From Escherichia coli (GTDB lineage: Bacteria; Pseudomonadota; Gammaproteobacteria; Enterobacterales; Enterobacteriaceae), in assembly GCF_016903815.1 (NCBI RefSeq), contig NZ_CP069973.1: a stretch of DNA of 64,000 nt; one strand, 5' to 3'. The notes beneath the pieces are model-generated. The model had not been told where the DNA came from, did no database searches, and was given only the letters and a program-made list of their open reading frames with translations. A program made the position numbers and the translations under genes. Positions 10,233 through 50,661 of the stretch are shown one piece after another. Position 1 is the first letter of the stretch; every line of letters begins with the position of its first letter.

Positions 10233-11423
10233 TTACACTTTTAACTTTCTAGAAAATAAATTTTTCGCTTTTCTGTAAAATGGTAGTTTTTTATTCTTAA
10301 TGGATTTTTCAAGTTTATTCAGCTTTGGCTTACATGTTCGAAGCTCTTGCACAGTCTCTCTAACATAGAGCTGCGTTTGTGTTAGTGGCGGAATTAACCC
10401 ATTATATAGTTTTTTTATATAGTTAATACATAGCTGTGAAGCATTTACCTCTTTATCTACGTAAAAAAGACTTTCACGAAGATTTGATGCTCTTAATACA
10501 ATATCTTGACAGTTATTGAGACAGTGAATTATGGATGGTTCAAAATCAGAAAGACTAGTGCAAACATAACCTATCTCGTCTCTATGTTTAAACTCTAAAG
10601 ATGTAAGATCAAATTTTTGAATACCTATTTTGTTTTTCAATCCAGCTTGATATAGAAGAATAGGTTTTTCTGCATACATACCGTCAAATATAGCCCCAGA
10701 AAAATCACTTATAATCAAATCTGCCGCACAAAGCAATTTTAATTGGTCCGCAGAACCATCGTAAACATGTTTTAAGTTTGCTTTATTTGCAGAATCTACC
10801 CATTCAGGTATTTTTGCATCATTATTGTGATGCATCTTTAATATAAGATTATATTTTGATTGTAACCGAGATATTGTATCCAGAAGTTCAAAATATGAAC
10901 CCAACTCCCCCCAAGTAGGCATGTAAAGCAATGTCTTTTTGGTTATATCTAATTTTAATTCTTTATAAAGCTCTTCTCTATTTGAGTACTTTTGTTTGTA
11001 CTCTAACCAATTATCAAACTTTGGATTTCCAACAGGATAGGATGGCGCATAGTGAGAAACAATATTAGATGAATAGTCACCATACATTAAATTCATGTCA
11101 GCAAGAGAACGCCATTCACCATAATTATGGCGCTCCTTTGCTAAACCATATTGTATTGAAACTAATTTACTATTTTTAATTTTCTCAATACCAGGAAAAG
11201 CCGACTGAAAAAGTAAGATATCATGAGTCCCATCAATAACGGGAACATCATGGGGCTCAATATACACTACATTCCATGATTTGTTATTAATTAACTTCTT
11301 GGGAAACAAGGCAAGGTTATTGTTTTTCCTAATAATAAAAATAGTTGGTTTTTCTAATTTTAATGCAATAGATTTGAATTGAATCAACTGGAATGGATTC
11401 CAGATTATAAATCCTACTTTCAT
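10233..11423 (-). CDS. TagB/TagF-like CDP-glycerol glycerophosphotransferase (putative capsule polymerase/primase)
   Basis: 396 aa ORF; C-terminal motif DLIISDFSGAIFDGMYAEKPILLY resembles the teichoic-acid glycerophosphotransferase signature; next to a cytidylyltransferase. Confidence 0.6.
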   Translation of the reverse strand: MKVGFIIWNPFQLIQFKSIALKLEKPTIFIIRKNNNLALFPKKLINNKSWNVVYIEPHDVPVIDGTHDILLFQSAFPGIEKIKNSKLVSIQYGLAKERHNYGEWRSLADMNLMYGDYSSNIVSHYAPSYPVGNPKFDNWLEYKQKYSNREELYKELKLDITKKTLLYMPTWGELGSYFELLDTISRLQSKYNLILKMHHNNDAKIPEWVDSANKANLKHVYDGSADQLKLLCAADLIISDFSGAIFDGMYAEKPILLYQAGLKNKIGIQKFDLTSLEFKHRDEIGYVCTSLSDFEPSIIHCLNNCQDIVLRASNLRESLFYVDKEVNASQLCINYIKKLYNGLIPPLTQTQLYVRETVQELRTCKPKLNKLEKSIKNKKLPFYRKAKNLFSRKLKV

Positions 11424-11429
11424 ATTTAT

Positions 11430-12689
11430 TCACTTTGTAATTTGTTCAAAAATTATTCTTTCTTTATCCCATTCATGCAGGTGGGTTCCCACTTCATTCT
11501 CATCAACAAAATAATGAGTATGAAAATCTTTATTGTTATGGAAATGAGTAAAACCGAACAAACATTCTTTGGGTATTTTACCAACTATAGAGTAAACCCA
11601 ATAGGCAACTGCTAGTCCTGTACTTGGTAGACCATCTAGTTTTTTTATAAGTGATTTGTACACATGATTTGGTATAACCGTATATTCCATTTCCATTAAT
11701 TGTGGAGCAAGAAAATATTTGTTTGCATCTCTTCTTTTTATTGTGAAATTATTCGCCGCAAAAATAACAAGTCTATTGTTTTTGAGATTATTATTGCTTA
11801 CTTCTTTATTTGCCACTCTAACCCATATATCCTGCTTTGTACCATAATCATCCGGATAGTCCAGGGTATAATTGTTTATTCTAATCACTGTTTTTTTAGA
11901 ATCAATCAACGCTCCATGACCGGTATTTATTTCTGTTGGTGCATTCCCAACAATACAAAAACTACCAGCGGAATTTCTAATTGATTTTATAAACTCATTT
12001 CGTGATTTTAAGATGTGAGAATATTGTTCACTTCCTCTTTGTATATATGGATCATTAAAAATCTTATTCTTTTTAATCTTGTTAAAAACATAAGGACTGC
12101 TTGTATATTTCAACAGAAACTTTTTCCCTATTTGCTTAATAATTTCATTAGCTTTAGCATCCTTATCATTTTGATATAACATTATTGCCAAGCGTAATTT
12201 TTGACTTTTATTTAAATTTCTCAATGATACATCAGAGCAAAGTCGTGATATTATTCTTTTAAGCCTGTCTGATTTATAGCCATATTTTTGTGAAATAAAA
12301 TCAGAATACCTAAGATTAATAGTTATTTCTTTATTTCTGTAATGCGCTGAAATAAAATGTTTTTCTGTAATATCGCTATAGTTACGATATCTTAGTAACC
12401 AATCAGCAATTGAGTAATGAATGTAACGTGATTTTACTTTATTGAATAAGTAAAAAGGTACTATCCCTACATTATCATGCGTTTTTTTTATCTTTATAAA
12501 CAGCAAAGAATTAATAAAATGAAAAAAATGAACTTTACGTATAAACCAAGAACCTTGTAACTTCACCACATTATCTTCACCTATAAAAATGAGTAATCTC
12601 ATTATTAGCTTGTCATAAATACTATATCTAGAAAAATAAACATCTTGCGCTTTTTTTATGAGTATTTTCTTTATTGACATATTATGCAA
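11430..12689 (-). CDS. Putative glycosyltransferase with sialyltransferase-like L-motif
   Basis: 419 aa ORF; segment SFCIVGNAPTEINTGHGALIDSKKTVIRINN resembles the C-x-VGN-x-P ... ID ... V-R-N motif of GT29/GT42-type transferases; assignment tentative. Confidence 0.5.
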   Translation of the reverse strand: MHNMSIKKILIKKAQDVYFSRYSIYDKLIMRLLIFIGEDNVVKLQGSWFIRKVHFFHFINSLLFIKIKKTHDNVGIVPFYLFNKVKSRYIHYSIADWLLRYRNYSDITEKHFISAHYRNKEITINLRYSDFISQKYGYKSDRLKRIISRLCSDVSLRNLNKSQKLRLAIMLYQNDKDAKANEIIKQIGKKFLLKYTSSPYVFNKIKKNKIFNDPYIQRGSEQYSHILKSRNEFIKSIRNSAGSFCIVGNAPTEINTGHGALIDSKKTVIRINNYTLDYPDDYGTKQDIWVRVANKEVSNNNLKNNRLVIFAANNFTIKRRDANKYFLAPQLMEMEYTVIPNHVYKSLIKKLDGLPSTGLAVAYWVYSIVGKIPKECLFGFTHFHNNKDFHTHYFVDENEVGTHLHEWDKERIIFEQITK

Positions 12690-12782
12690 GTTTCTTTTGT
12701 TAGTTCGCTCTAAGCCTCAACAGACATAGGTGTTCATTCCCTTTTCAAGGGGATGAACACCTACCTGAACATAAACATTAAT

Positions 12783-13178
12783 TTAACTGTATTTTTTAAT
12801 CTCCGTAATAAGTTTTGTAGTAGAAATGCCTTCCGTCCTTGGTAAATAAATAACCTCGCATAACTTTTTAAACATATCAAACTTTCCTTCCCAATCATTA
12901 CCCATAATAAGAATGTTAGCTTTATATTTTTTTATATACTCACCTTTTAATTCAAGTGACTCCTCAAGAAATACGTCATCAACATATTGTAGAGAACGAA
13001 TAATTTCACATCGCTCATTTTCTGGGTAAACTGGGTATCTTTGCTTTTTAGAGAAACTTAATGCATCGGATGACACGCCAACAATTAATCGATCACCATA
13101 TTTCTTTGCTCTTTCTAAAATTTTAATGTGGCCAATATGTAAAACATCAAATGTTCCAAAGGTTATGACTGTACGCAT
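12783..13178 (-). CDS. Glycerol-3-phosphate cytidylyltransferase (TagD-like)
   Basis: About 131 aa; N-terminal ITFGTFDVLHIGHIKIL contains the HxGH nucleotidyltransferase signature and matches the TagD-family start; ORF track gives 12783..13190, start trimmed to the Met before RTVITFGTFD. Confidence 0.7.
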   Translation of the reverse strand: MRTVITFGTFDVLHIGHIKILERAKKYGDRLIVGVSSDALSFSKKQRYPVYPENERCEIIRSLQYVDDVFLEESLELKGEYIKKYKANILIMGNDWEGKFDMFKKLCEVIYLPRTEGISTTKLITEIKKYS

Positions 13179-13347
13179 TGTATATTCCAATTTATATAAA
13201 GAGAGATTTTTTGATAACGGAAATCAAGATTTAGCAAAATAAATACCATCGCCATCAACCTCACCTCATAAAGTCAGTAAATACAAATGAGAACAAGGTG
13301 ATTTCGTGATAATAATTGCATGAATTACACAACTTGAATGAAGATAA

Positions 13348-14022
13348 TCAATATGTATTAATTGTTATGTTGTTTTTATACTCCTCTATCCCCTCCTGAA
13401 CATCCTCATGAAAACTAACCGCATTATCATCCATAAACACAATGGCCACATCGCAAAACTCTTTCAATGAATTCAAACTATGTGAAACCATTAAAAAACT
13501 AGATTCTTTATGCCTTTCTTTAAACAATTGAGCGCACTTTTCTTTAAACCTGGCATCACCGACCGCCGTTACTTCATCGACGATATAATAATCAAACTTA
13601 AATGCCATGCTTAAACCAAAGCCCAGGCGAGATCGCATACCTGATGAGTAAGTTTTAATCGGCATATCAAAGTACTTACCGAGTTCGGCAAATTCTTCGA
13701 CAAACTCAATTTTCTCTTTCAGTTCTTCTTGCTTCGCGTATAACCGCGCAACAAATTTTACGTTTTCGCGTCCGGTTAAACTTCCCTGAAATCCACCTGC
13801 GAGGCCGACTGGCCATGATATTGTTTTATTAGTGATGATCTTTCCACTGTCGGGGCGGTCAATGCCGCCAATCATTCTCAGTAACGTTGATTTACCCGCT
13901 CCGTTGCGACCAATAAAGGCAACACTTTTTCCTGAAGGGATTTCAATATTTAAATCCTTAAAGACATAGTGTCGACCCGTTGGCGTGCGATAGGACTTCG
14001 TCAAATTCTCAATCTTAATCAT
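13348..14022 (-). CDS. kpsT: Capsule ABC transporter ATP-binding protein KpsT
   Basis: 224 aa ORF; Walker A GRNGAGKST, ABC signature YSSGMRSRLGF, Walker B YYIVDE; ATGA overlap with kpsM. Confidence 0.92.
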   Translation of the reverse strand: MIKIENLTKSYRTPTGRHYVFKDLNIEIPSGKSVAFIGRNGAGKSTLLRMIGGIDRPDSGKIITNKTISWPVGLAGGFQGSLTGRENVKFVARLYAKQEELKEKIEFVEEFAELGKYFDMPIKTYSSGMRSRLGFGLSMAFKFDYYIVDEVTAVGDARFKEKCAQLFKERHKESSFLMVSHSLNSLKEFCDVAIVFMDDNAVSFHEDVQEGIEEYKNNITINTY

Positions 14023-14795
14023 GATGTCAGCATTGCCTCTTCACGCGTTCGGTATAACGCCAGACCGATGAACAGGGTGACCAGAGTGAACATTGCCAGG
14101 TAGTTCAGACTTACGCCTTCGCTGATATAGCCAGGCATAACAGCCTCGCGGCTTAGCTCCACCACATGTACTAATGGGTTCCAGAGTAGATATGACCAGT
14201 ATTGCTTTGGAATCGAGTGTAGAGGGAACATGATGCAGGAGATGAAATACAGCGGCTTAAGCAGTATCGGCAGAACCTTTTGCATTTCGGGGAAGGTTTT
14301 ACCAACGACCATGAATATTAAGCCGACGCCACATGAAAGAATGATCAGCAGGCTCCAGGTAGCCACAAGTTGTAAAAAATTTGTTATCTCGAAATATTCG
14401 CCTGCCATCCAGACAATGAGCATAAGCAGAATATAAACAGCAACGTAAATCAGTGTCTCAAGCAGTGCGCGTGCAATGATCGTATCGATGGGTTTTACTG
14501 GTCGATAATTAAACAACCCCTGATTCGCTTCAATAGCACCTACAGAACGATTGCTGATACTGCTAAAGATAAAAAAGGGAATCAGGCCATTAAGTAAAAA
14601 CACCGGGAATGAGATGTCTGGCATCGTGCGGTGCATAATGTAACCAAAAATGCCCAACAGTATCAGCAAATGCGCAGAGGGTTCGAGAATCGCCCACAAA
14701 TATCCCAGACGGAACTTACCAAAGCGTGTTCGTATTTCTCGTAGAAATAATGCCTCTACGGTGACTTTCTGGACTTCAAATCCACTTCTTGCCAT
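14019..14795 (-). CDS. kpsM: Capsule ABC transporter permease KpsM
   Basis: 258 aa polytopic membrane protein starting MARSGFEVQKVTVEALFLREIRTRFG; the ORF track extends to 14936 but that extension covers the ops element and is not coding. Confidence 0.9.
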   Translation of the reverse strand: MARSGFEVQKVTVEALFLREIRTRFGKFRLGYLWAILEPSAHLLILLGIFGYIMHRTMPDISFPVFLLNGLIPFFIFSSISNRSVGAIEANQGLFNYRPVKPIDTIIARALLETLIYVAVYILLMLIVWMAGEYFEITNFLQLVATWSLLIILSCGVGLIFMVVGKTFPEMQKVLPILLKPLYFISCIMFPLHSIPKQYWSYLLWNPLVHVVELSREAVMPGYISEGVSLNYLAMFTLVTLFIGLALYRTREEAMLTS

Positions 14796-15855
14796 TTGAT
14801 GATGTGATCCTAATCTCTTCAGGTACGCTACCGCCCCTGGCTTAACAGCTACCAATACACTGGAGGTAATACTTGACTTGTTTGTAACTGGATAAAATTC
14901 ATTCGGACGGCTTGACCTTTTAATAGCCAAAAACAATTTCAGCAGAAATTATTTCCGCAGGGATAAATAGATCTATTTCCGTCTCGTTTCTTCTAATCCA
15001 TTCTTCAGGCATGAATGTATTCGGTCTTCTGGTAATTTCAGAAAACTGGCCGTTTTAGAATGCAGAGTTAATTTCTCAGGAAATTATTTTTTGTGATTAC
15101 TGTTAACTACTTGATTATAATATCCCCTATGGATTTTATGCGTAACAATACCTACAATCTGTTTCAAACCAGAACGCACGCGATTGATTACCAATAAATT
15201 GTTCACCGAGAAACTATTTCCCTATTTAAAATTCACTCGTGTACTTCTTATTTATATCTACAGCCCCCTCTTTACAGCCATATTTGTGATTCATATCACA
15301 TTTAAATGGTGTTATTTAAGTCGCATCAATAATCCCGAAGGTAATTATTTTCGTCGATTAAAATATACATCTTGATTATTTTGTGTGTTTATTTTAACCA
15401 GTGTTACAACCAACACCATCCCTCAGTAGATATACCTGAGCAGACATTTCTTAAAATCAACGAATAGTTTCACTGGAAATTATTATGCTTATTTGAAATT
15501 CCCTTTCTGATTATCTCCAGGAATTTTACTAATTTCCAAGCTACACAAAATACAGATCACACAAGAATTATCCTATATGTTTTGGCCTATCAATTGTTAC
15601 TCAATGATTTATTGCAACTATTAATAATCATAATGTGTCAAAACACTTAAGCAACTTTACAGTCTGAGAAAGGTGTCGATTAACGAAGGCTACATGGTGA
15701 AAAACAGGTTCCTTCAGTGTTACCGAATATTCCGTGGTGGTCTGGAGGGAGATAATTCTTGCTACATCGAAACTCAGCCCGGTAAGCGGGTTTGACAGTT
15801 CCGCACTCACCATTGGGCTAAGGGTTATCAGGTGGGGTTAAGGAAATGGCAATAC
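14796..15855 (-). promoter_or_regulatory. kps region 3 promoter and long untranslated leader (capsule-island to backbone junction)
   Basis: About 1 kb AT-rich non-coding region between kpsM and gspM with no convincing ORF; the region 3 promoter is known to lie several hundred bp upstream of kpsM. Exact -10/-35 not assigned. Confidence 0.5.
14824..14835 (-). promoter_or_regulatory. ops-like element (RfaH recruitment site) within a JUMPstart-like leader upstream of kpsM
   Basis: Minus-strand sequence GGCGGTAGCGTA about 30 nt upstream of the kpsM ATG matches the ops core GGCGGTAG; this is the known position for kps region 3. Confidence 0.8.
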
Positions 15856-43784: not shown

Positions 43785-45515
43785 GTGGTGTATATGTCTA
43801 ATAAAATCTTTACGCATTCCCTACCTATGCGCTATGCCGATTTTCCAACGCTTGTTGATGCTTTGGACTACGCCGCTCTGAGTAGCGCCGGAATGAATTT
43901 TTATGACAGACGTTGCCAACTTGAAGATCAACTGGAATATCAGACGTTAAAAGCACGTGCCGAAGCTGGTGCGAAGCGGTTGTTATCGCTGAACCTGAAA
44001 AAAGGCGATCGCGTGGCACTGATTGCCGAAACAAGTAGCGAGTTCGTAGAGGCTTTTTTTGCCTGCCAGTATGCCGGCTTAGTCGCCGTCCCGTTGGCGA
44101 TTCCAATGGGCGTTGGTCAGCGGGATTCCTGGAGCGCCAAATTGCAGGGTTTACTGGCAAGTTGCCAGCCCGCAGCCATTATCACTGGTGATGAGTGGTT
44201 GCCACTGGTCAATGCCGCGACGCATGACAACCCCGAATTACATGTTTTAAGCCACGCCTGGTTTAAGGCATTACCGGAAGCCGATGTTGCGCTCCAGCGT
44301 CCAGTTCCGAACGATATCGCCTACCTCCAGTACACCTCCGGCAGCACCCGTTTTCCCCGTGGCGTCATTATCACCCATCGCGAAGTGATGGCTAATCTAC
44401 GTGCTATAAGCCACGACGGCATTAAATTACGCCCTGGCGACCGCTGCGTCTCCTGGCTGCCTTTCTACCATGATATGGGACTGGTCGGCTTTCTCCTGAC
44501 CCCCGTCGCCACGCAGCTTTCAGTAGATTATTTGCGCACTCAGGATTTTGCCATGCGTCCTCTGCAATGGCTTAAATTGATCAGTAAAAATCGCGGCACC
44601 GTTTCCGTTGCGCCGCCGTTTGGCTATGAATTGTGCCAGCGCCGCGTGAATGAAAAAGATCTCGCTGAACTGGATCTTTCCTGCTGGCGCGTCGCTGGTA
44701 TTGGTGCAGAACCCATCTCCGCAGAACAACTCCATCAATTCGCTGAATGTTTCCGTCAGGTTAACTTTGACAATAAAACTTTCATGCCGTGCTACGGACT
44801 GGCAGAAAATGCGCTGGCTGTCAGCTTCTCTGATGAAGCCTCCGGGGTTGTGGTTAACGAAGTGGATCGCGACATCCTCGAATATCAGGGTAAAGCCGTC
44901 GCGCCGGGTGCAGAGACACGCGCCGTATCGACTTTCGTCAACTGCGGCAAAGCGTTGCCGGAACATGGTATTGAAATCCGCAATGAAGCAGGTATGCCGG
45001 TCGCGGAACGTGTGGTAGGCCATATTTGCATCTCCGGTCCCAGTCTGATGAGCGGTTACTTTGGCGACCAGGTTTCGCAAGACGAGATTGCCGCGACGGG
45101 CTGGTTAGACACCGGCGACCTCGGTTATCTGCTGGACGGTTATCTGTATGTCACCGGACGCATTAAAGATCTGATTATTATTCGTGGCCGTAATATCTGG
45201 CCGCAGGATATTGAATATATAGCGGAACAGGAACCGGAAATTCATTCTGGCGATGCGATTGCTTTTGTTACCGCCCAGGAAAAAATCATTTTGCAGATCC
45301 AGTGTCGGATCAGCGACGAAGAACGTCGCGGGCAGCTTATCCACGCGCTGGCGGCACGGATCCAAAGCGAATTTGGCGTGACCGCGGCTATCGATCTGTT
45401 GCCGCCCCACAGTATTCCCCGAACGTCCTCCGGCAAGCCTGCCCGTGCGGAAGCGAAAAAACGTTATCAGAAGGCTTATGCTGCCAGTCTTAATGTGCAG
45501 GAATCCCTGGCATGA
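43785..45515 (+). CDS. Fatty acyl-AMP ligase / acyl-ACP synthetase-like adenylating enzyme
   Basis: 576 aa ORF; AMP-binding motif YTSGSTRFPRGVIITH, later TGDLG and GRIKDLIIIRGRN motifs; 4-bp overlap with the next gene. Confidence 0.85.
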   Translation: MVYMSNKIFTHSLPMRYADFPTLVDALDYAALSSAGMNFYDRRCQLEDQLEYQTLKARAEAGAKRLLSLNLKKGDRVALIAETSSEFVEAFFACQYAGLVAVPLAIPMGVGQRDSWSAKLQGLLASCQPAAIITGDEWLPLVNAATHDNPELHVLSHAWFKALPEADVALQRPVPNDIAYLQYTSGSTRFPRGVIITHREVMANLRAISHDGIKLRPGDRCVSWLPFYHDMGLVGFLLTPVATQLSVDYLRTQDFAMRPLQWLKLISKNRGTVSVAPPFGYELCQRRVNEKDLAELDLSCWRVAGIGAEPISAEQLHQFAECFRQVNFDNKTFMPCYGLAENALAVSFSDEASGVVVNEVDRDILEYQGKAVAPGAETRAVSTFVNCGKALPEHGIEIRNEAGMPVAERVVGHICISGPSLMSGYFGDQVSQDEIAATGWLDTGDLGYLLDGYLYVTGRIKDLIIIRGRNIWPQDIEYIAEQEPEIHSGDAIAFVTAQEKIILQIQCRISDEERRGQLIHALAARIQSEFGVTAAIDLLPPHSIPRTSSGKPARAEAKKRYQKAYAASLNVQESLA

Positions 45516-46426
45516 ATCAAACTGTCGCGGTGACGGGCGCTACCGGGTTTATCGGTAAATATATTATCGATAACCTGCTCGCCCGCGGCTTTCACGTTCG
45601 CGCATTGACGCGTACTGCCCGCGCTCACGTCAATGATAATCTCACCTGGGTGCGCGGTTCGCTGGAAGATACTCATTCACTTAGCGAGCTGGTTGCCGGA
45701 GCCAGCGTAGTGGTCCATTGCGCCGGGCAAGTGCGCGGGCACAAAGAAGAGATTTTCACCCGCTGTAACGTTGACGGCAGCCTGCGCCTGATGCAAGCAG
45801 CAAAAGAGAGCGGCTTTTGCCAACGTTTTCTGTTTATCTCTTCGCTGGCGGCGCGCCATCCCGAGCTCTCCTGGTATGCAAAATCCAAATACGTCGCCGA
45901 GCAACGACTGGCAGCAATGGCGGACGAAATTACGCTGGGCGTTTTTCGCCCGACAGCCGTGTATGGTCCCGGCGATAAAGAGTTAAAACCGCTGTTTGAC
46001 TGGATGCTGCGCGGCCTGCTGCCACGACTTGGTGCGCCAGATACACAGCTCTCTTTTCTGCACGTCACCGATTTCGCGCAAGCAGTGGGTCAGTGGTTAA
46101 GCGCCGAAACTATACAGACGCAAACCTATGAATTATGCGATGGCGTCGTCGGCGGCTATGACTGGCAACGCGTACAGCAACTTGCCGCCGACGCCCGTTG
46201 CGGTTCCGTGCGAATGGTTGGCATTCCTCTGCCGGTACTCACCGGCCTTGCGGATATCAGTACCGCGTTGAGTCGCCTGGCAGGTAAAGAACCTATGCTG
46301 ACCCGCTCGAAAATTCGTGAATTAACCCACGCCGACTGGTCGGCAAGTAATAACCGTATTTCTGAAGATATTAATTGGTTTCCCGGGATTAGCCTGGAAC
46401 ACGCATTACGCAACGGGCTATTTTGA
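45512..46426 (+). CDS. NAD(P)-dependent epimerase/dehydratase-family reductase (candidate ketosphinganine/ceramide reductase)
   Basis: 304 aa ORF; N-terminal Rossmann motif VTGATGFIGKY; operon position between the adenylating enzyme and the ACP. Confidence 0.8.
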   Translation: MNQTVAVTGATGFIGKYIIDNLLARGFHVRALTRTARAHVNDNLTWVRGSLEDTHSLSELVAGASVVVHCAGQVRGHKEEIFTRCNVDGSLRLMQAAKESGFCQRFLFISSLAARHPELSWYAKSKYVAEQRLAAMADEITLGVFRPTAVYGPGDKELKPLFDWMLRGLLPRLGAPDTQLSFLHVTDFAQAVGQWLSAETIQTQTYELCDGVVGGYDWQRVQQLAADARCGSVRMVGIPLPVLTGLADISTALSRLAGKEPMLTRSKIRELTHADWSASNNRISEDINWFPGISLEHALRNGLF

Positions 46427-46457
46427 TTGTCTTGTTTAAAGGTGTGTTAACGTTTCT

Positions 46458-46706
46458 ATGGTAAATCGTGAAATAGTAATGGATTACATCCTTTCCTGTT
46501 TACAGGATTTGGTCGAAAACGGTGTGGAAATTAAGCCCGACAGCGATCTCGTCAACGATCTTGGCCTGGAGTCGATCAAAGTGATGGATCTCTTAATGAT
46601 GCTGGAAGACAGATTCGATATTTCCATTCCTATTAATATTCTGCTGGATGTCAAAACCCCTGCGCAATTAATGGAAACTCTACTTCCATGGCTGGAGAAT
46701 AAATAA
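46458..46706 (+). CDS. Dedicated acyl carrier protein
   Basis: About 75-82 aa; phosphopantetheine attachment motif DLGLESI; acidic; stop overlaps the start of the following synthase gene. Confidence 0.8.
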   Translation: MVNREIVMDYILSCLQDLVENGVEIKPDSDLVNDLGLESIKVMDLLMMLEDRFDISIPINILLDVKTPAQLMETLLPWLENK

Positions 46707-47878
46707 TGGGGCTATACGATAAATATGCGCGCCTTGCTGGCGAGCGACTGCAATTTAGTGACAACGGGTTAACACCGTTTGGCACCTGTATTGATGAAGT
46801 GTATTCCGCCACCGAAGGCCGGATCGGCAATAAAAAAGTGATTCTGGCCGGGACCAATAATTATCTCGGTTTAACCTTTAATCATGATGCCATCAGCGAA
46901 GGTCAGGCCGCGTTAGCGGCCCAAGGTACCGGCACCACCGGTTCTCGTATGGCAAACGGCAGTTATGCGCCGCACCTGGCGTTAGAGAAAGAGATTGCCG
47001 AGTTTTTCAATCGCCCTACCGCTATCGTTTTTTCAACCGGTTATACCGCTAATTTAGGCGTCATCAGCGCACTTGCCGACCATAACGCCGTGGTGTTACT
47101 GGATGCCGACAGCCACGCCAGTATTTATGACGCCTGTTCTCTCGGTGGCGCGGAAATTATTCGTTTCCGCCATAACGATGCTAAAGATCTGGAACGGCGC
47201 ATGGTTCGCCTCGGTGAACGGGCGAAAGAGGCGATTATCATCGTTGAGGGTATCTACAGCATGCTCGGTGACGTTGCGCCGTTAGCGGAAATTGTTGATA
47301 TCAAACGTCGTCTCGGTGGTTATTTGATTGTCGATGAAGCGCATTCGTTTGGCGTGTTAGGCGCAACGGGGCGCGGACTGGCTGAAGCTGTCGGCGTTGA
47401 AGATGATGTGGATATTATCGTTGGCACCTTCAGTAAAAGTCTGGCCTCGATTGGCGGTTTTGCTGTCGGTTCGGAAGCGATGGAAGTGCTGCGCTACGGC
47501 AGCCGCCCGTATATTTTTACCGCCTCTCCTTCTCCGTCCTGCATTGCGACCGTGCGCTCGTCGTTAAGAACTATTGCCACACAACCAGAGCTGCGGCAAA
47601 AGCTGATGGATAATGCCAACCATCTGTATGACGGTCTGCAAAAACTGGGTTATGAGTTAAGTTCACATATTAGCCCGGTAGTGCCGGTAATAATCGGTTC
47701 GAAAGAGGACGGTTTACGCATCTGGCGCGAGCTTATTTCGCTGGGCGTTTATGTGAATCTTATCCTGCCACCTGCCGCGCCTGCAGGCATCACGCTGCTG
47801 CGCTGTAGCGTAAACGCTGCTCACAGTCGTGAGCAAATCGATGCCATCATTCAGGCATTTGCTACTCTGAAGCAGTAA
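46706..47878 (+). CDS. Alpha-oxoamine synthase, serine palmitoyltransferase-like (PLP-dependent)
   Basis: 390 aa ORF; PLP-lysine region GTFSKSLASIGGF typical of the AOS family (Spt/KBL/BioF/CqsA); paired with an ACP and an acyl-AMP ligase. Confidence 0.85.
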   Translation: MGLYDKYARLAGERLQFSDNGLTPFGTCIDEVYSATEGRIGNKKVILAGTNNYLGLTFNHDAISEGQAALAAQGTGTTGSRMANGSYAPHLALEKEIAEFFNRPTAIVFSTGYTANLGVISALADHNAVVLLDADSHASIYDACSLGGAEIIRFRHNDAKDLERRMVRLGERAKEAIIIVEGIYSMLGDVAPLAEIVDIKRRLGGYLIVDEAHSFGVLGATGRGLAEAVGVEDDVDIIVGTFSKSLASIGGFAVGSEAMEVLRYGSRPYIFTASPSPSCIATVRSSLRTIATQPELRQKLMDNANHLYDGLQKLGYELSSHISPVVPVIIGSKEDGLRIWRELISLGVYVNLILPPAAPAGITLLRCSVNAAHSREQIDAIIQAFATLKQ

Positions 47879-47883
47879 TGTGA

Positions 47884-47916
47884 GCCCGCCGTGGTGTTGC
47901 GCCACGGCGGGTTTAA
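47884..47916 (+). terminator. Rho-independent terminator-like hairpin between convergent genes
   Basis: Perfect 10-bp GC-rich stem CCCGCCGTGG/CCACGGCGGG followed by TTTAATGTT, just after the Spt-like stop and overlapping the stop of the convergent permease gene. Confidence 0.6.
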
Positions 47917-48992
47917 TGTTGTCTGTCATACCAATACACCAGGCTCAACGCCACCAGCACAAACGCTATCGGTAAACCGAGCGCGGTAACAGGTGCGCTC
48001 AACGCAAATAGCAATCCCAGATTGACCATGATTTGATAGCTGATCCAGGTGAGTAAGCCAACGATGACACCTACAGCGAGACGGCTACCCATCCCTGGCG
48101 AGCGCGGGGCGCTAAAGGTAAACGGCACAGCCAGCAAAATCATCGCCAGGGTCAGGATGGGTTGCCCCAGTTTTTCCCACAGTGCAAGGCGGTATTCGCT
48201 GCTGGGTTGCCCGGTTTCCTGCAAATAATGGATGTAATGATTAAGCTGACGGACAGAAAAAGTATTGCCCGGCATTGATAACTCTTCAAGATCCATACTG
48301 GTGAAGGCCGATTGCCAGGCAAGATTATCTAATGTTTCCAGCGTTTCTTTGCCATTCAGCCATTTTTTATGATTCACACCATGCAGGATCCACGTTTTGT
48401 CGTCTTCAATGGTGGCACTGCGTGCATAAATGTAGGATTCGAGCGAGAGATCGTCGCGATAATGAAAAATCTCCACGCCCACCGGCTGGCCCTGCTCGTT
48501 CAGCGATTTCACCGTCACAAATTCATTACCACGCCTGGCCCACAGCATATTGCCGGTAATGTCATCGTCCTCCCCCAACGCGGTGGCGGTCGATTTGATT
48601 TGCAACGCCTGTTGCTGTAATGGCGACGCTACCCACTCATCTATCGCGCCTAACGAAACAGTCCACAATATCCCTGTAACCAGCGCCACCAGTGCAATAC
48701 GGAAGATAGAAAACCCCATGCTGCGAATGGCGGTAAGCTCACTGTTTTTCGATAACTGCCCCAGGCCGACAATCCCTCCCAATAAGGCGATAAATGGCGA
48801 AAGTTCGACCAGTGTGCGCGGTAAGGTCATTAGCACCACCAGCACCGCCTGAGTCCAGCGATAACCGCCCGGGCTGACATCATCCAGTTCGTTAATCAGG
48901 TTGAAGGTGGTAAAAAGCGGCAGCAATAGCCCTGCGGCGGCGGCAAAACCGAGAAAGAGATGACGGATTAAATAGCGGCTGAAAACATTCAT
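47913..48992 (-). CDS. LptG-like (YjgP/YjgQ family) permease, paralog
   Basis: About 359 aa from MNVFSRYLIRHLFLGF; polytopic membrane protein with a large periplasmic loop; ATGA overlap with the upstream paralog; the ORF track start at 49073 is likely an extension. Confidence 0.75.
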   Translation of the reverse strand: MNVFSRYLIRHLFLGFAAAAGLLLPLFTTFNLINELDDVSPGGYRWTQAVLVVLMTLPRTLVELSPFIALLGGIVGLGQLSKNSELTAIRSMGFSIFRIALVALVTGILWTVSLGAIDEWVASPLQQQALQIKSTATALGEDDDITGNMLWARRGNEFVTVKSLNEQGQPVGVEIFHYRDDLSLESYIYARSATIEDDKTWILHGVNHKKWLNGKETLETLDNLAWQSAFTSMDLEELSMPGNTFSVRQLNHYIHYLQETGQPSSEYRLALWEKLGQPILTLAMILLAVPFTFSAPRSPGMGSRLAVGVIVGLLTWISYQIMVNLGLLFALSAPVTALGLPIAFVLVALSLVYWYDRQH

Positions 48993-50059
48993 CGGGAAAA
49001 TTTCTGCAGCAAAGAGAAGTCGCGTGCGACCAGCATCAGCAGGCCCATTAGCATGAGTCCGGGTACTAACCACAAACCAGGAATGAGGGGAATCGCGCCG
49101 TTAGCCACCAGCGTACGGCAGACGTCACCGCCATAAAAAATGGCAATAAACAGCAACGTCAGTGGCAATAACGTTGAAAATCGCCCTTGCCGCGGTTTTA
49201 CCCGACTTAATGAAATGGCCAGCAGCGCCATCAACAATGCGGTCAGGCCACGGCTTTGCCGCCATTGCAGTTCGGCATGATCGGCTGGAAAGACGGAGCG
49301 CGCCAGCTCCGTGACCGATTTCGCTTTGCGTTTGACGTTAGGGCTTTGATCCAGCGGATTCAGATGTAATTGCAGATTACGGTAGATCTGTTCGTTGTCA
49401 TCACGCCCCTGATGATCGATAAGATAGGCAGTGCCGTTGTGCAACATAACGGTCGGTTTCTCGGGTGATGGGTCAATCACATCAACCGAACGGGCGCGGA
49501 AAATGCGGGTTCGATTGGCAGTAGAAGTATAAATCAGCGCGTCAGTCAGGCGATTATTATCCTGATCAACCGTCTGCGAAAGGATCATTCGTCCGTTATC
49601 GTTAGTGTTAAATTTCTTTGCCCGCAACTGGCGAACATCCAGCTCCGACTGCGACTGCTGCTCCAGTTGATAAATCTGCGCATAAGCCCACGGACGACCA
49701 TACATCGACAGAAGGGTGACAAAAATACTTAGCGGTATCGCCAGATAAAGAACGGCTTTGTACAAGCGTCCCGGACTGCCCCCCGCCGCAGAGATAGCGG
49801 TAATTTCCGAGTCGGTATACATCTGCCCTAGCGTCACGCCAACTGACACATACAGACCAACAGGTAACAACATCTCCAGTGCAATCAGTACTTTGTAGAA
49901 AACGATATCCAGCACAACATCAAGAGCTAATGTCCCATTTGCCGCTTCGGTCAGATAACGCTGTGCGGAGTAGCTGGCGAAAATAAAGATCAGAAAACCG
50001 ACGATAATCAGCACCAGACGGCGCGTACCACGCATGATGTAGTGTTCAACCAGCTTCAT
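48989..50059 (-). CDS. LptF-like (YjgP/YjgQ family) permease, paralog
   Basis: 356 aa polytopic membrane protein with a periplasmic loop; paired with the LptG-like gene; no adjacent ABC ATPase. Confidence 0.75.
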   Translation of the reverse strand: MKLVEHYIMRGTRRLVLIIVGFLIFIFASYSAQRYLTEAANGTLALDVVLDIVFYKVLIALEMLLPVGLYVSVGVTLGQMYTDSEITAISAAGGSPGRLYKAVLYLAIPLSIFVTLLSMYGRPWAYAQIYQLEQQSQSELDVRQLRAKKFNTNDNGRMILSQTVDQDNNRLTDALIYTSTANRTRIFRARSVDVIDPSPEKPTVMLHNGTAYLIDHQGRDDNEQIYRNLQLHLNPLDQSPNVKRKAKSVTELARSVFPADHAELQWRQSRGLTALLMALLAISLSRVKPRQGRFSTLLPLTLLFIAIFYGGDVCRTLVANGAIPLIPGLWLVPGLMLMGLLMLVARDFSLLQKFSR

Positions 50060-50089
50060 CTCACTAACGCCCTCAATCCTTTGAGTTTT

Positions 50090-50653
50090 TTATTCATTGA
50101 TCAGTTTCTGCGCCAACGCAATGACATGATCTACCTCTTCCGGCGTCAGGCTGCCGTCCTTTGCCCACTGAATTTGCCCGGCTTTATTCAGCACCAGAAT
50201 GGTTGAACTCTGCTCCGGCAAGCGCCAGGCAACGCGTCCCTGTCCATTGCCGTCAATAACGAATTGCGCCCACGGATAGCGGCGTTTATTTTTTTCGATT
50301 TTGCCAACAACAAAATAGCCAGTACCAAAGATGGCATCATCGGTGTTCACAATGGTGGTGGGCTGAAAACGATCCTGCGGAAAGTTTGCCGCTTCAACCG
50401 CTTTAATTAACAGTGAGTTCTTTTTCTTCGCCGACTTACGCCCGGCGATATACTGAATAATGCGGACTTTTCCCGCTAATTGTGTGCTGTTCCACTTTTG
50501 GTAGTGAATTTCGTCGTCGCTATTCAGAAGCAGCTCGCCGCCTTCCTGGATATAAACAGGGGTAACCGTTTTGCCAGTGACGAAATTGTGTGCCTGCACA
50601 CCCGGGGCTAAGAGCATGATAATCAACGCAATAATCAAACGAGATGACATCAT
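50090..50653 (-). CDS. YtfJ-family-like periplasmic protein
   Basis: 187 aa ORF with signal peptide (MMSSRLIIALIIMLLAPGVQA); family assignment from recollection of YtfJ-like proteins, not verified. Confidence 0.6.
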   Translation of the reverse strand: MMSSRLIIALIIMLLAPGVQAHNFVTGKTVTPVYIQEGGELLLNSDDEIHYQKWNSTQLAGKVRIIQYIAGRKSAKKKNSLLIKAVEAANFPQDRFQPTTIVNTDDAIFGTGYFVVGKIEKNKRRYPWAQFVIDGNGQGRVAWRLPEQSSTILVLNKAGQIQWAKDGSLTPEEVDHVIALAQKLINE

Positions 50654-50661
50654 TGCTCCGG

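Follow-up and report, generated by a model that had tools for sequence, protein, structure and literature searches.

The stretch of DNA analyzed here (64 kb of Escherichia coli, hereafter the window) holds a locus, adjacent to the gsp/yghD operon, that is 100% identical to that of E. coli strain 7/2 (NZ_CP023820) and is laid out as a canonical E. coli group 2 capsule cluster, with kpsFEDUCS followed by an AT-rich region 2 and then by kpsTM (Table 1). As the ORFs of the window and the RefSeq annotation of the strain 7/2 locus show, kpsMT is convergent with kpsFEDUCS, and the two sets of genes flank region 2, whose G+C content is 24–34% versus 50–60% in the flanks. The kps ORFs that lie wholly inside the window are all intact. 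Upstream of kpsM, beyond a leader of 1060 nt, are yghD/gspM and the gsp operon.

Table 1. Features of the capsule locus and of the leader upstream of kpsM, in window coordinates.
Feature	Position	Strand	Basis
kpsF (cut by the window edge), kpsE, kpsD, kpsU, kpsC, kpsS	1-7395	plus	ORFs, RefSeq
Region 2, serotype-specific, five co-oriented genes	7657..13178	minus	ORFs, annotation, Pfam
kpsT, ABC ATPase; start overlaps the kpsM stop	13348..14022	minus	ORFs, annotation, profile
kpsM, 258 aa (777 nt), ABC-2 permease of the capsule exporter	14019..14795	minus	RefSeq; NCBIfam KpsM NF050053; Pfam ABC2_membrane
yghD-kpsM intergenic region, 1060 nt, long 5' leader of the region 3 transcript	14796..15855	minus	ORFs, annotation, literature
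Spurious 47-codon upstream extension of the kpsM ORF, from TTG 14936, across JUMPstart/ops	14796..14936	minus	ORF list
AGGA, weak Shine-Dalgarno-like, 12 nt before the kpsM ATG	14811..14808	minus	Read from sequence; function inferred
ops 12-mer, GGCGGTAGCGTA	14835..14824	minus	Sole exact match in the 64-kb window
Complete 39-nt JUMPstart, with ops as its 3' end	14862..14824	minus	Rfam RF01707
JUMPstart 5-bp stem-loop, UUGGU / 9-nt loop / GCCAG	14837..14855	minus	Rfam consensus structure line
Tandem CAAGTCAAGT, 5-bp CAAGT duplication that shifts the upstream frame	14871..14880	minus	Alignment of 8 leaders
Predicted PR3 promoter region	15498..15577	minus	Second most conserved leader block (0.78-0.80 of columns invariant); published distances projected
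-35/-10-like pair, TTGGAA/GATAAT	15539..15510	minus	Promoter scan

The region 2 found here is of a type that is complete in just 60 of 5426 complete E. coli genomes. Its genes encode a small cytidylyltransferase (labeled 'pantoate--beta-alanine ligase' or 'FAD synthase' by RefSeq, and matching Pfam CTP_transf_like with an E value of 4e-26), a GT29 (sialyltransferase-family) protein, though neu genes are absent, a CDP-glycerol glycerophosphotransferase, a TPR protein, and a protein with a phage 5-bladed beta-propeller receptor-binding domain (PF21311). The yghD-kpsM leader of BL21(DE3) is 99.9% identical, yet past kpsT (window 13340 and lower) that strain has another region 2, with a glycerophosphotransferase and an IspD/TarI cytidylyltransferase, in which the match is confined to the distal end of the 'phage baseplate' gene (97.5%). 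This points to recombination breakpoints inside the cluster.

Outside the capsule cluster, the window holds a block of accessory genes between yghO and yghS (~43827-53639) that encode a fatty acyl-AMP ligase, an epimerase/dehydratase, an acyl carrier protein, serine palmitoyltransferase (spt), LptF/LptG paralogues, a YtfJ-family protein and a 'lipopolysaccharide biosynthesis protein'; it looks like a sphingolipid-like or lipid-export gene set. The Rfam scan also returned the sRNA C0719 between glcA and glcB (34590-34811, plus strand, 299 bits) and a naRNA4/REP-type palindromic element at 60053-60129, with matches of 92.6 and 60.1 bits on the two strands.

Immediately upstream of kpsM is a complete JUMPstart. 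In the Rfam scan of the whole window, it matched all of RF01707 (model positions 1-38 of 38) with 57.1 bits and an E value of 1.8e-10, the gathering score of the family being 35 bits, and it stands, as these elements do, upstream of genes for polysaccharide export and biosynthesis, here kpsMT and region 2. The ops that ends it has an exact core, GGCGGTAG (14835..14828, minus strand), with G4, G5, T6, A7, G8 and the potential C3:G8 pair all present; T11 is also present, and position 12 is A where the consensus has G. It is oriented with the kpsM strand inside the intergenic leader, that is, on the non-template strand side of the gene. Observed directly are its sequence and strand, where it lies, the family to which it belongs, how far it is conserved and which genes surround it. 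For an exact 12-mer the expectation in 2 x 64 kb is about 0.008 occurrences, and with one mismatch or less at least one match turned up in 17 of 100 shuffles, so that the 12-mer, taken alone, is only moderately improbable by chance. Chance is excluded for this ops because it ends a complete JUMPstart with the score and E value given above.

The initial annotation had placed an ops/JUMPstart element on the minus strand about 30 nt before kpsM, within 14796-14860. As read from the sequence, 28 nt separate the last base of the ops from the A of the kpsM ATG (14795..14793, minus strand), and the ops falls inside that span; the JUMPstart, on the other hand, reaches 14862, 2 nt past its upper coordinate. 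The assignment of the element to kps region 3 was borne out by its sequence class and strand, by a 28-nt spacing like that in K5, and by the match to the Rfam model. An ops/JUMPstart before kpsM is a well-known signal; here it had been read correctly, and it is an ordinary and already known one.

How well is the element conserved? Alignment with published kpsM leaders had been named as a check on the assignment. The leader of the window was aligned with seven others, from BL21(DE3), an O2:K2 strain and five more, whose identity to the query (leader plus flanks) goes down to 80.7%. The distance from the end of the ops to the ATG is exactly 28 nt in all eight, including the leader that is 80.7% identical overall. 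Seven of the eight have GGCGGTAGCGTA as their 12-mer, and the K2 strain has GGCGGTAGCATA. No part of the leader is more conserved than the block from the JUMPstart to the ATG (14871-14792): in the seven-leader alignment from which BL21 was left out, 0.90-0.95 of its columns are invariant, versus 0.1-0.8 elsewhere. The leader was found in 1593 of 5426 complete E. coli genomes, and the 91-nt junction, at 80% coverage or more, in 1595 of the 5426; shorter additional matches to the junction query are JUMPstart copies at other loci.

A large 5' UTR has been described for kps region 3 (PMC8960920). In K5, the promoter PR3 lies 741 bp and the ops 28 bp upstream of kpsM (PMC8960920, review by Aldawood and Roberts), and in CFT073 the transcription unit, with a predicted start, begins 817 nt upstream of the kps ops and has a UTR of 846 nt (PMC9765446). 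Projected onto the alignment, these starts fall at ~15536-15541 (K5) and ~15528 (CFT073), about 700 nt upstream of the ops, and it is from them that the ops is taken to be transcribed. The predicted PR3 was placed solely by this projection of published distances; the promoter scan of the leader gave 3 sites versus 4.2 expected and does not discriminate. Transcription starts downstream of the element had been named as the observation that would speak against it; the starts described for K5 and CFT073 lie far upstream, of kpsM and of the ops, respectively. The leader also has a 115-116-nt indel at ~15085-15090: the K2 strain and two divergent lineages have the segment, which the window lacks, and it alters the length of the UTR from ~741 to ~855 nt.

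The function of the element can be judged from work on related strains. RfaH-mediated read-through is called essential for region 2 expression in kps in a passage of the review on these clusters (PMC8960920, citing Stevens 1997 and Xue 2009). In CFT073, where the kpsM ops, GGCGGTAGCATA, begins at -40 relative to the gene start (PMC9765446), it marks the strongest RfaH ChIP-seq peak in the genome, with a fold enrichment of 70.9 (Hustmyer et al., PMC9765446); the RfaH peak spans kpsM to the end of region 2 and continues into antisense kpsS, and downstream RNA polymerase occupancy collapses in a delta-rfaH strain unless hns and stpA are deleted (PMC9765446). The exact 12-mer of the window, GGCGGTAGCGTA, recruits RfaH at c1882 in the same strain (PMC9765446, Data set S2). 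RfaH reads a hairpin of the non-template strand at ops, for which G4-G8 are essential (Zuber et al. 2018, PMC5995543), and all of these bases are present in the ops of the window. From its sequence and by analogy with these systems, the element is very probably the ops within the JUMPstart of an E. coli group 2 capsule region 3 operon, working as the RfaH loading site that had been proposed.

How would such a site act in this cluster? Transcription would start at PR3, some 700-750 nt upstream (window ~15530-15540, minus strand), and RNA polymerase would transcribe the long leader as far as the ops, where the exposed non-template strand, GGCGGTAGCGTA, would form a small hairpin recognized by the N-terminal domain of RfaH. 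RfaH would then load, displacing or excluding NusG, its C-terminal domain would refold, and it would stay with the polymerase. Modified in this way, the polymerase should resist pausing, Rho-dependent termination, and silencing by H-NS/StpA filaments, and would go on to transcribe kpsM, kpsT and then the AT-rich genes of region 2 (13178..7657). Rho and H-NS are presumed to be the barrier that RfaH overcomes, since a simple terminator scan of 6000-14100 returned nothing convincing as an intrinsic terminator between kpsT and region 2: of the 5 terminator-like sites that it gave, versus 3.6 expected, none lies in that gap. The refolded KOW domain of RfaH probably also helps to load ribosomes at kpsM, because the AGGA there is a weak and poorly spaced Shine-Dalgarno-like site. 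RfaH-dependent read-through into region 2, which the initial annotation had drawn from the presence of the element, would thus hold for this cluster by analogy; the PR3 start, the binding of RfaH and the dependence of region 2 on rfaH are presumed here by transfer from K5, K1 and K2 strains.

The base at position 12 deserves a closer look, since it is A in every kps leader sampled (8 leaders). A pause-inducing TG at ops positions 11-12 is common to the validated K-12 targets, and the change G12C abolishes the U11 pause yet leaves RfaH recruitment in vitro (PMC5995543), while the A12 sites kps and c1882 are bound by RfaH in CFT073 in vivo (PMC9765446). Because the A12 sites of CFT073 bind RfaH and because recruitment survives G12C, G12 appears to be a feature of the consensus and not essential. 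A12 is probably a natural variant and no failure of ops membership, and the U11 pause may be weaker here owing to it. It is possible, if unlikely, that the kps ops is a pause-weakened variant that loads RfaH with less dependence on the U11 pause than the K-12 paradigm, aided by slow transcription through an H-NS-coated leader or by the upstream half of the JUMPstart, and tuned mainly for ribosome recruitment at kpsM. The observations cited for this are the A12 of all kps leaders sampled, a start codon 28 nt away with a poorly spaced Shine-Dalgarno-like site, and an unusually long, H-NS-bound leader. If true, it would refine a known mechanism and would not constitute a new system.

Does the JUMPstart, or its upstream half, act mainly as an RNA structure of the leader (the stem-loop at 14855..14837), on mRNA processing, stability or translation, instead of or besides recruiting RfaH at the level of DNA? 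Rfam does model the JUMPstart as a cis-regulatory RNA with a 5-bp stem, and the stem can form in all nine JUMPstarts that were aligned (7 kps and 2 group-1 cps copies, with columns 97% identical): pairing is possible in all 25 cells (100%), and the outer pair is of three types, U-G, U-A and C-G. Moreover, in these nine sequences the 27 nt preceding the ops are conserved to the same degree as the ops, although RfaH requires only the latter. Such high conservation, however, suits recognition of DNA or by protein equally, and pair counting in the nine sequences found no pair changed on both sides and a pairing of the stem no better than in shuffled controls. Nor was the local RNA fold of 14880..14790 more stable than shuffled sequence (z = 0.70). 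The stem is thus neither supported nor refuted by the pairing and folding tests, and the RfaH/ops mechanism is experimentally sufficient for read-through. A mainly RNA-based action is improbable, and a role for the upstream half of the JUMPstart, including a separate one at the RNA level, is unsupported.

The ops also falls within a longer reading frame, and the element would be part of a longer KpsM coding region if the 305-aa ORF from TTG 14936 were real, with the 12-mer encoding Gly-Ala-Val-Ala. The frame is indeed open for 47 codons above the ATG in the window and for 34 codons in other lineages. It is open in the window, however, because of the 5-bp CAAGT duplication, which is present only in the window/BL21/7-2 lineage among the 8 leaders, 9 nt upstream of the JUMPstart; in the six other lineages an in-frame TGA lies 34 codons upstream of the ATG. 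RefSeq annotates kpsM as a 777-nt gene from the ATG in every genome examined. The ATG at 14795 opens the protein MARSGFEVQK..., the minus strand reading ...CCAGTGTATTGGTAGCTGTTAAGCCAGGGGCGGTAGCGTACCTGAAGAGATTAGGATCACATCATCAAATGGCAAGAAGT... in this part of the window, and this Met is residue 48 of the 305-aa ORF. The KpsM and ABC2_membrane profiles begin just past it, at about residues 56-61 (position 5 of NF050053 aligns with residue 60, and ABC2_membrane starts at residue 61), and no family profile covers the 47-codon extension. The stretch matches, moreover, a non-coding family with an E value of 1.8e-10. A longer KpsM is accordingly very improbable, and the comparison of leaders and profiles argues that the 305-aa ORF is an artefact, the true start of kpsM most probably being ATG 14795. 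The initial annotation had also called the extension an artefact, and this stands on the duplication, the TGA of six lineages, the RefSeq start and the profiles; its reason, the presence of the ops, does not carry the conclusion, since an ops does not by itself exclude coding.

Also very improbable is the reading that the match arose by chance or is a decayed relic that no longer functions in this strain: the core GGCGGTAG is found four more times in the window, within genes and without function, and the related E. coli B/BL21 lineage has the leader at 99.9% identity, but none of those four 8-mers has T11 or a JUMPstart context, the match here is to a full-length JUMPstart (E 1.8e-10), its position and sequence are invariant across divergent leaders, and the kps ORFs wholly inside the window are intact, so that conservation has effectively refuted this reading already.

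The other four 8-mers were rejected as ops sites, all of them being intragenic and outside any JUMPstart. The five copies, at window positions 6708, 14828, 40221, 55630 and 62758, are all on the minus strand, and their number compares with 1.07 expected, five being reached in 1 of 100 shuffles. Three of them are in sense orientation within glcD, pitB and hybC, all minus-strand genes, and the strand bias probably stems from the coding strand or from codons, not from regulation. The copy near 6708 belongs to an ops-like sequence, GGCGGTAGCGAG (6704-6715, minus strand), which is antisense within kpsS (6163-7395, plus strand) and on the non-template strand of the region 2 read-through transcript. 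It is probably inert, since it has A, not T, at position 11; the same antisense kpsS site has been catalogued in CFT073 (c3691), without RfaH reloading (PMC9765446).

For the annotation of this locus, the consequence is that kpsM should be given as 258 aa from ATG 14795 and the 305-aa ORF should not be called. As an RfaH loading site, the element shows the point from which expression of the capsule synthesis genes would depend on RfaH, and the prediction follows that RfaH and H-NS control this less common type of region 2 as they do those of K1, K2 and K5. The finding matters as correct annotation only and advances no open question.

The closest known counterpart is kps region 3 of E. coli K5 (and K1), which is the same locus in another strain. 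In K5, compared here by its published description, the ops is 28 bp before kpsM, with a 5' UTR of ~740 nt from PR3 (PMC8960920), and there, too, kpsMT is followed by an AT-rich region 2 in an operon convergent with kpsFEDUCS. The window differs only around the element, in having another set of region 2 genes and the 5-bp CAAGT duplication. The kpsM ops of CFT073 (K2) is at the same position (-40) and shares A12, and in that strain RfaH and RNA polymerase run from the ops through region 2 (PMC9765446). Its position 10, on the other hand, is A (GGCGGTAGCATA), where the window has G, and K2-type leaders carry a 116-nt insertion at ~window 15090 that the window does not have. The JUMPstarts of group 1 capsules, found before wzi-wza-wzb-wzc in E. 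coli, agree with that of the window at 34-35 of 39 positions and have the same stem-loop and ops core, but they precede a Wzy-dependent locus, ~370 nt before its first gene, whereas kps is an ABC-transporter locus; at the two such loci that were opened, found with the longer leader query, position 12 of the ops is C or A (ending in GTC or GTA). The K-12 ops sites of rfaQ/waaQ, the rfb/wzx operon and wza (GGCGGTAGCGTG) have the same first 11 bases as the window, and they likewise belong to the non-template strand of a 5' leader, within a JUMPstart. In these, however, G12 completes the TG, while all kps leaders sampled have A12, and the UTR upstream of the ops, which is 817 nt for kps (CFT073), is 27-67 nt at the K-12-type sites (PMC9765446).
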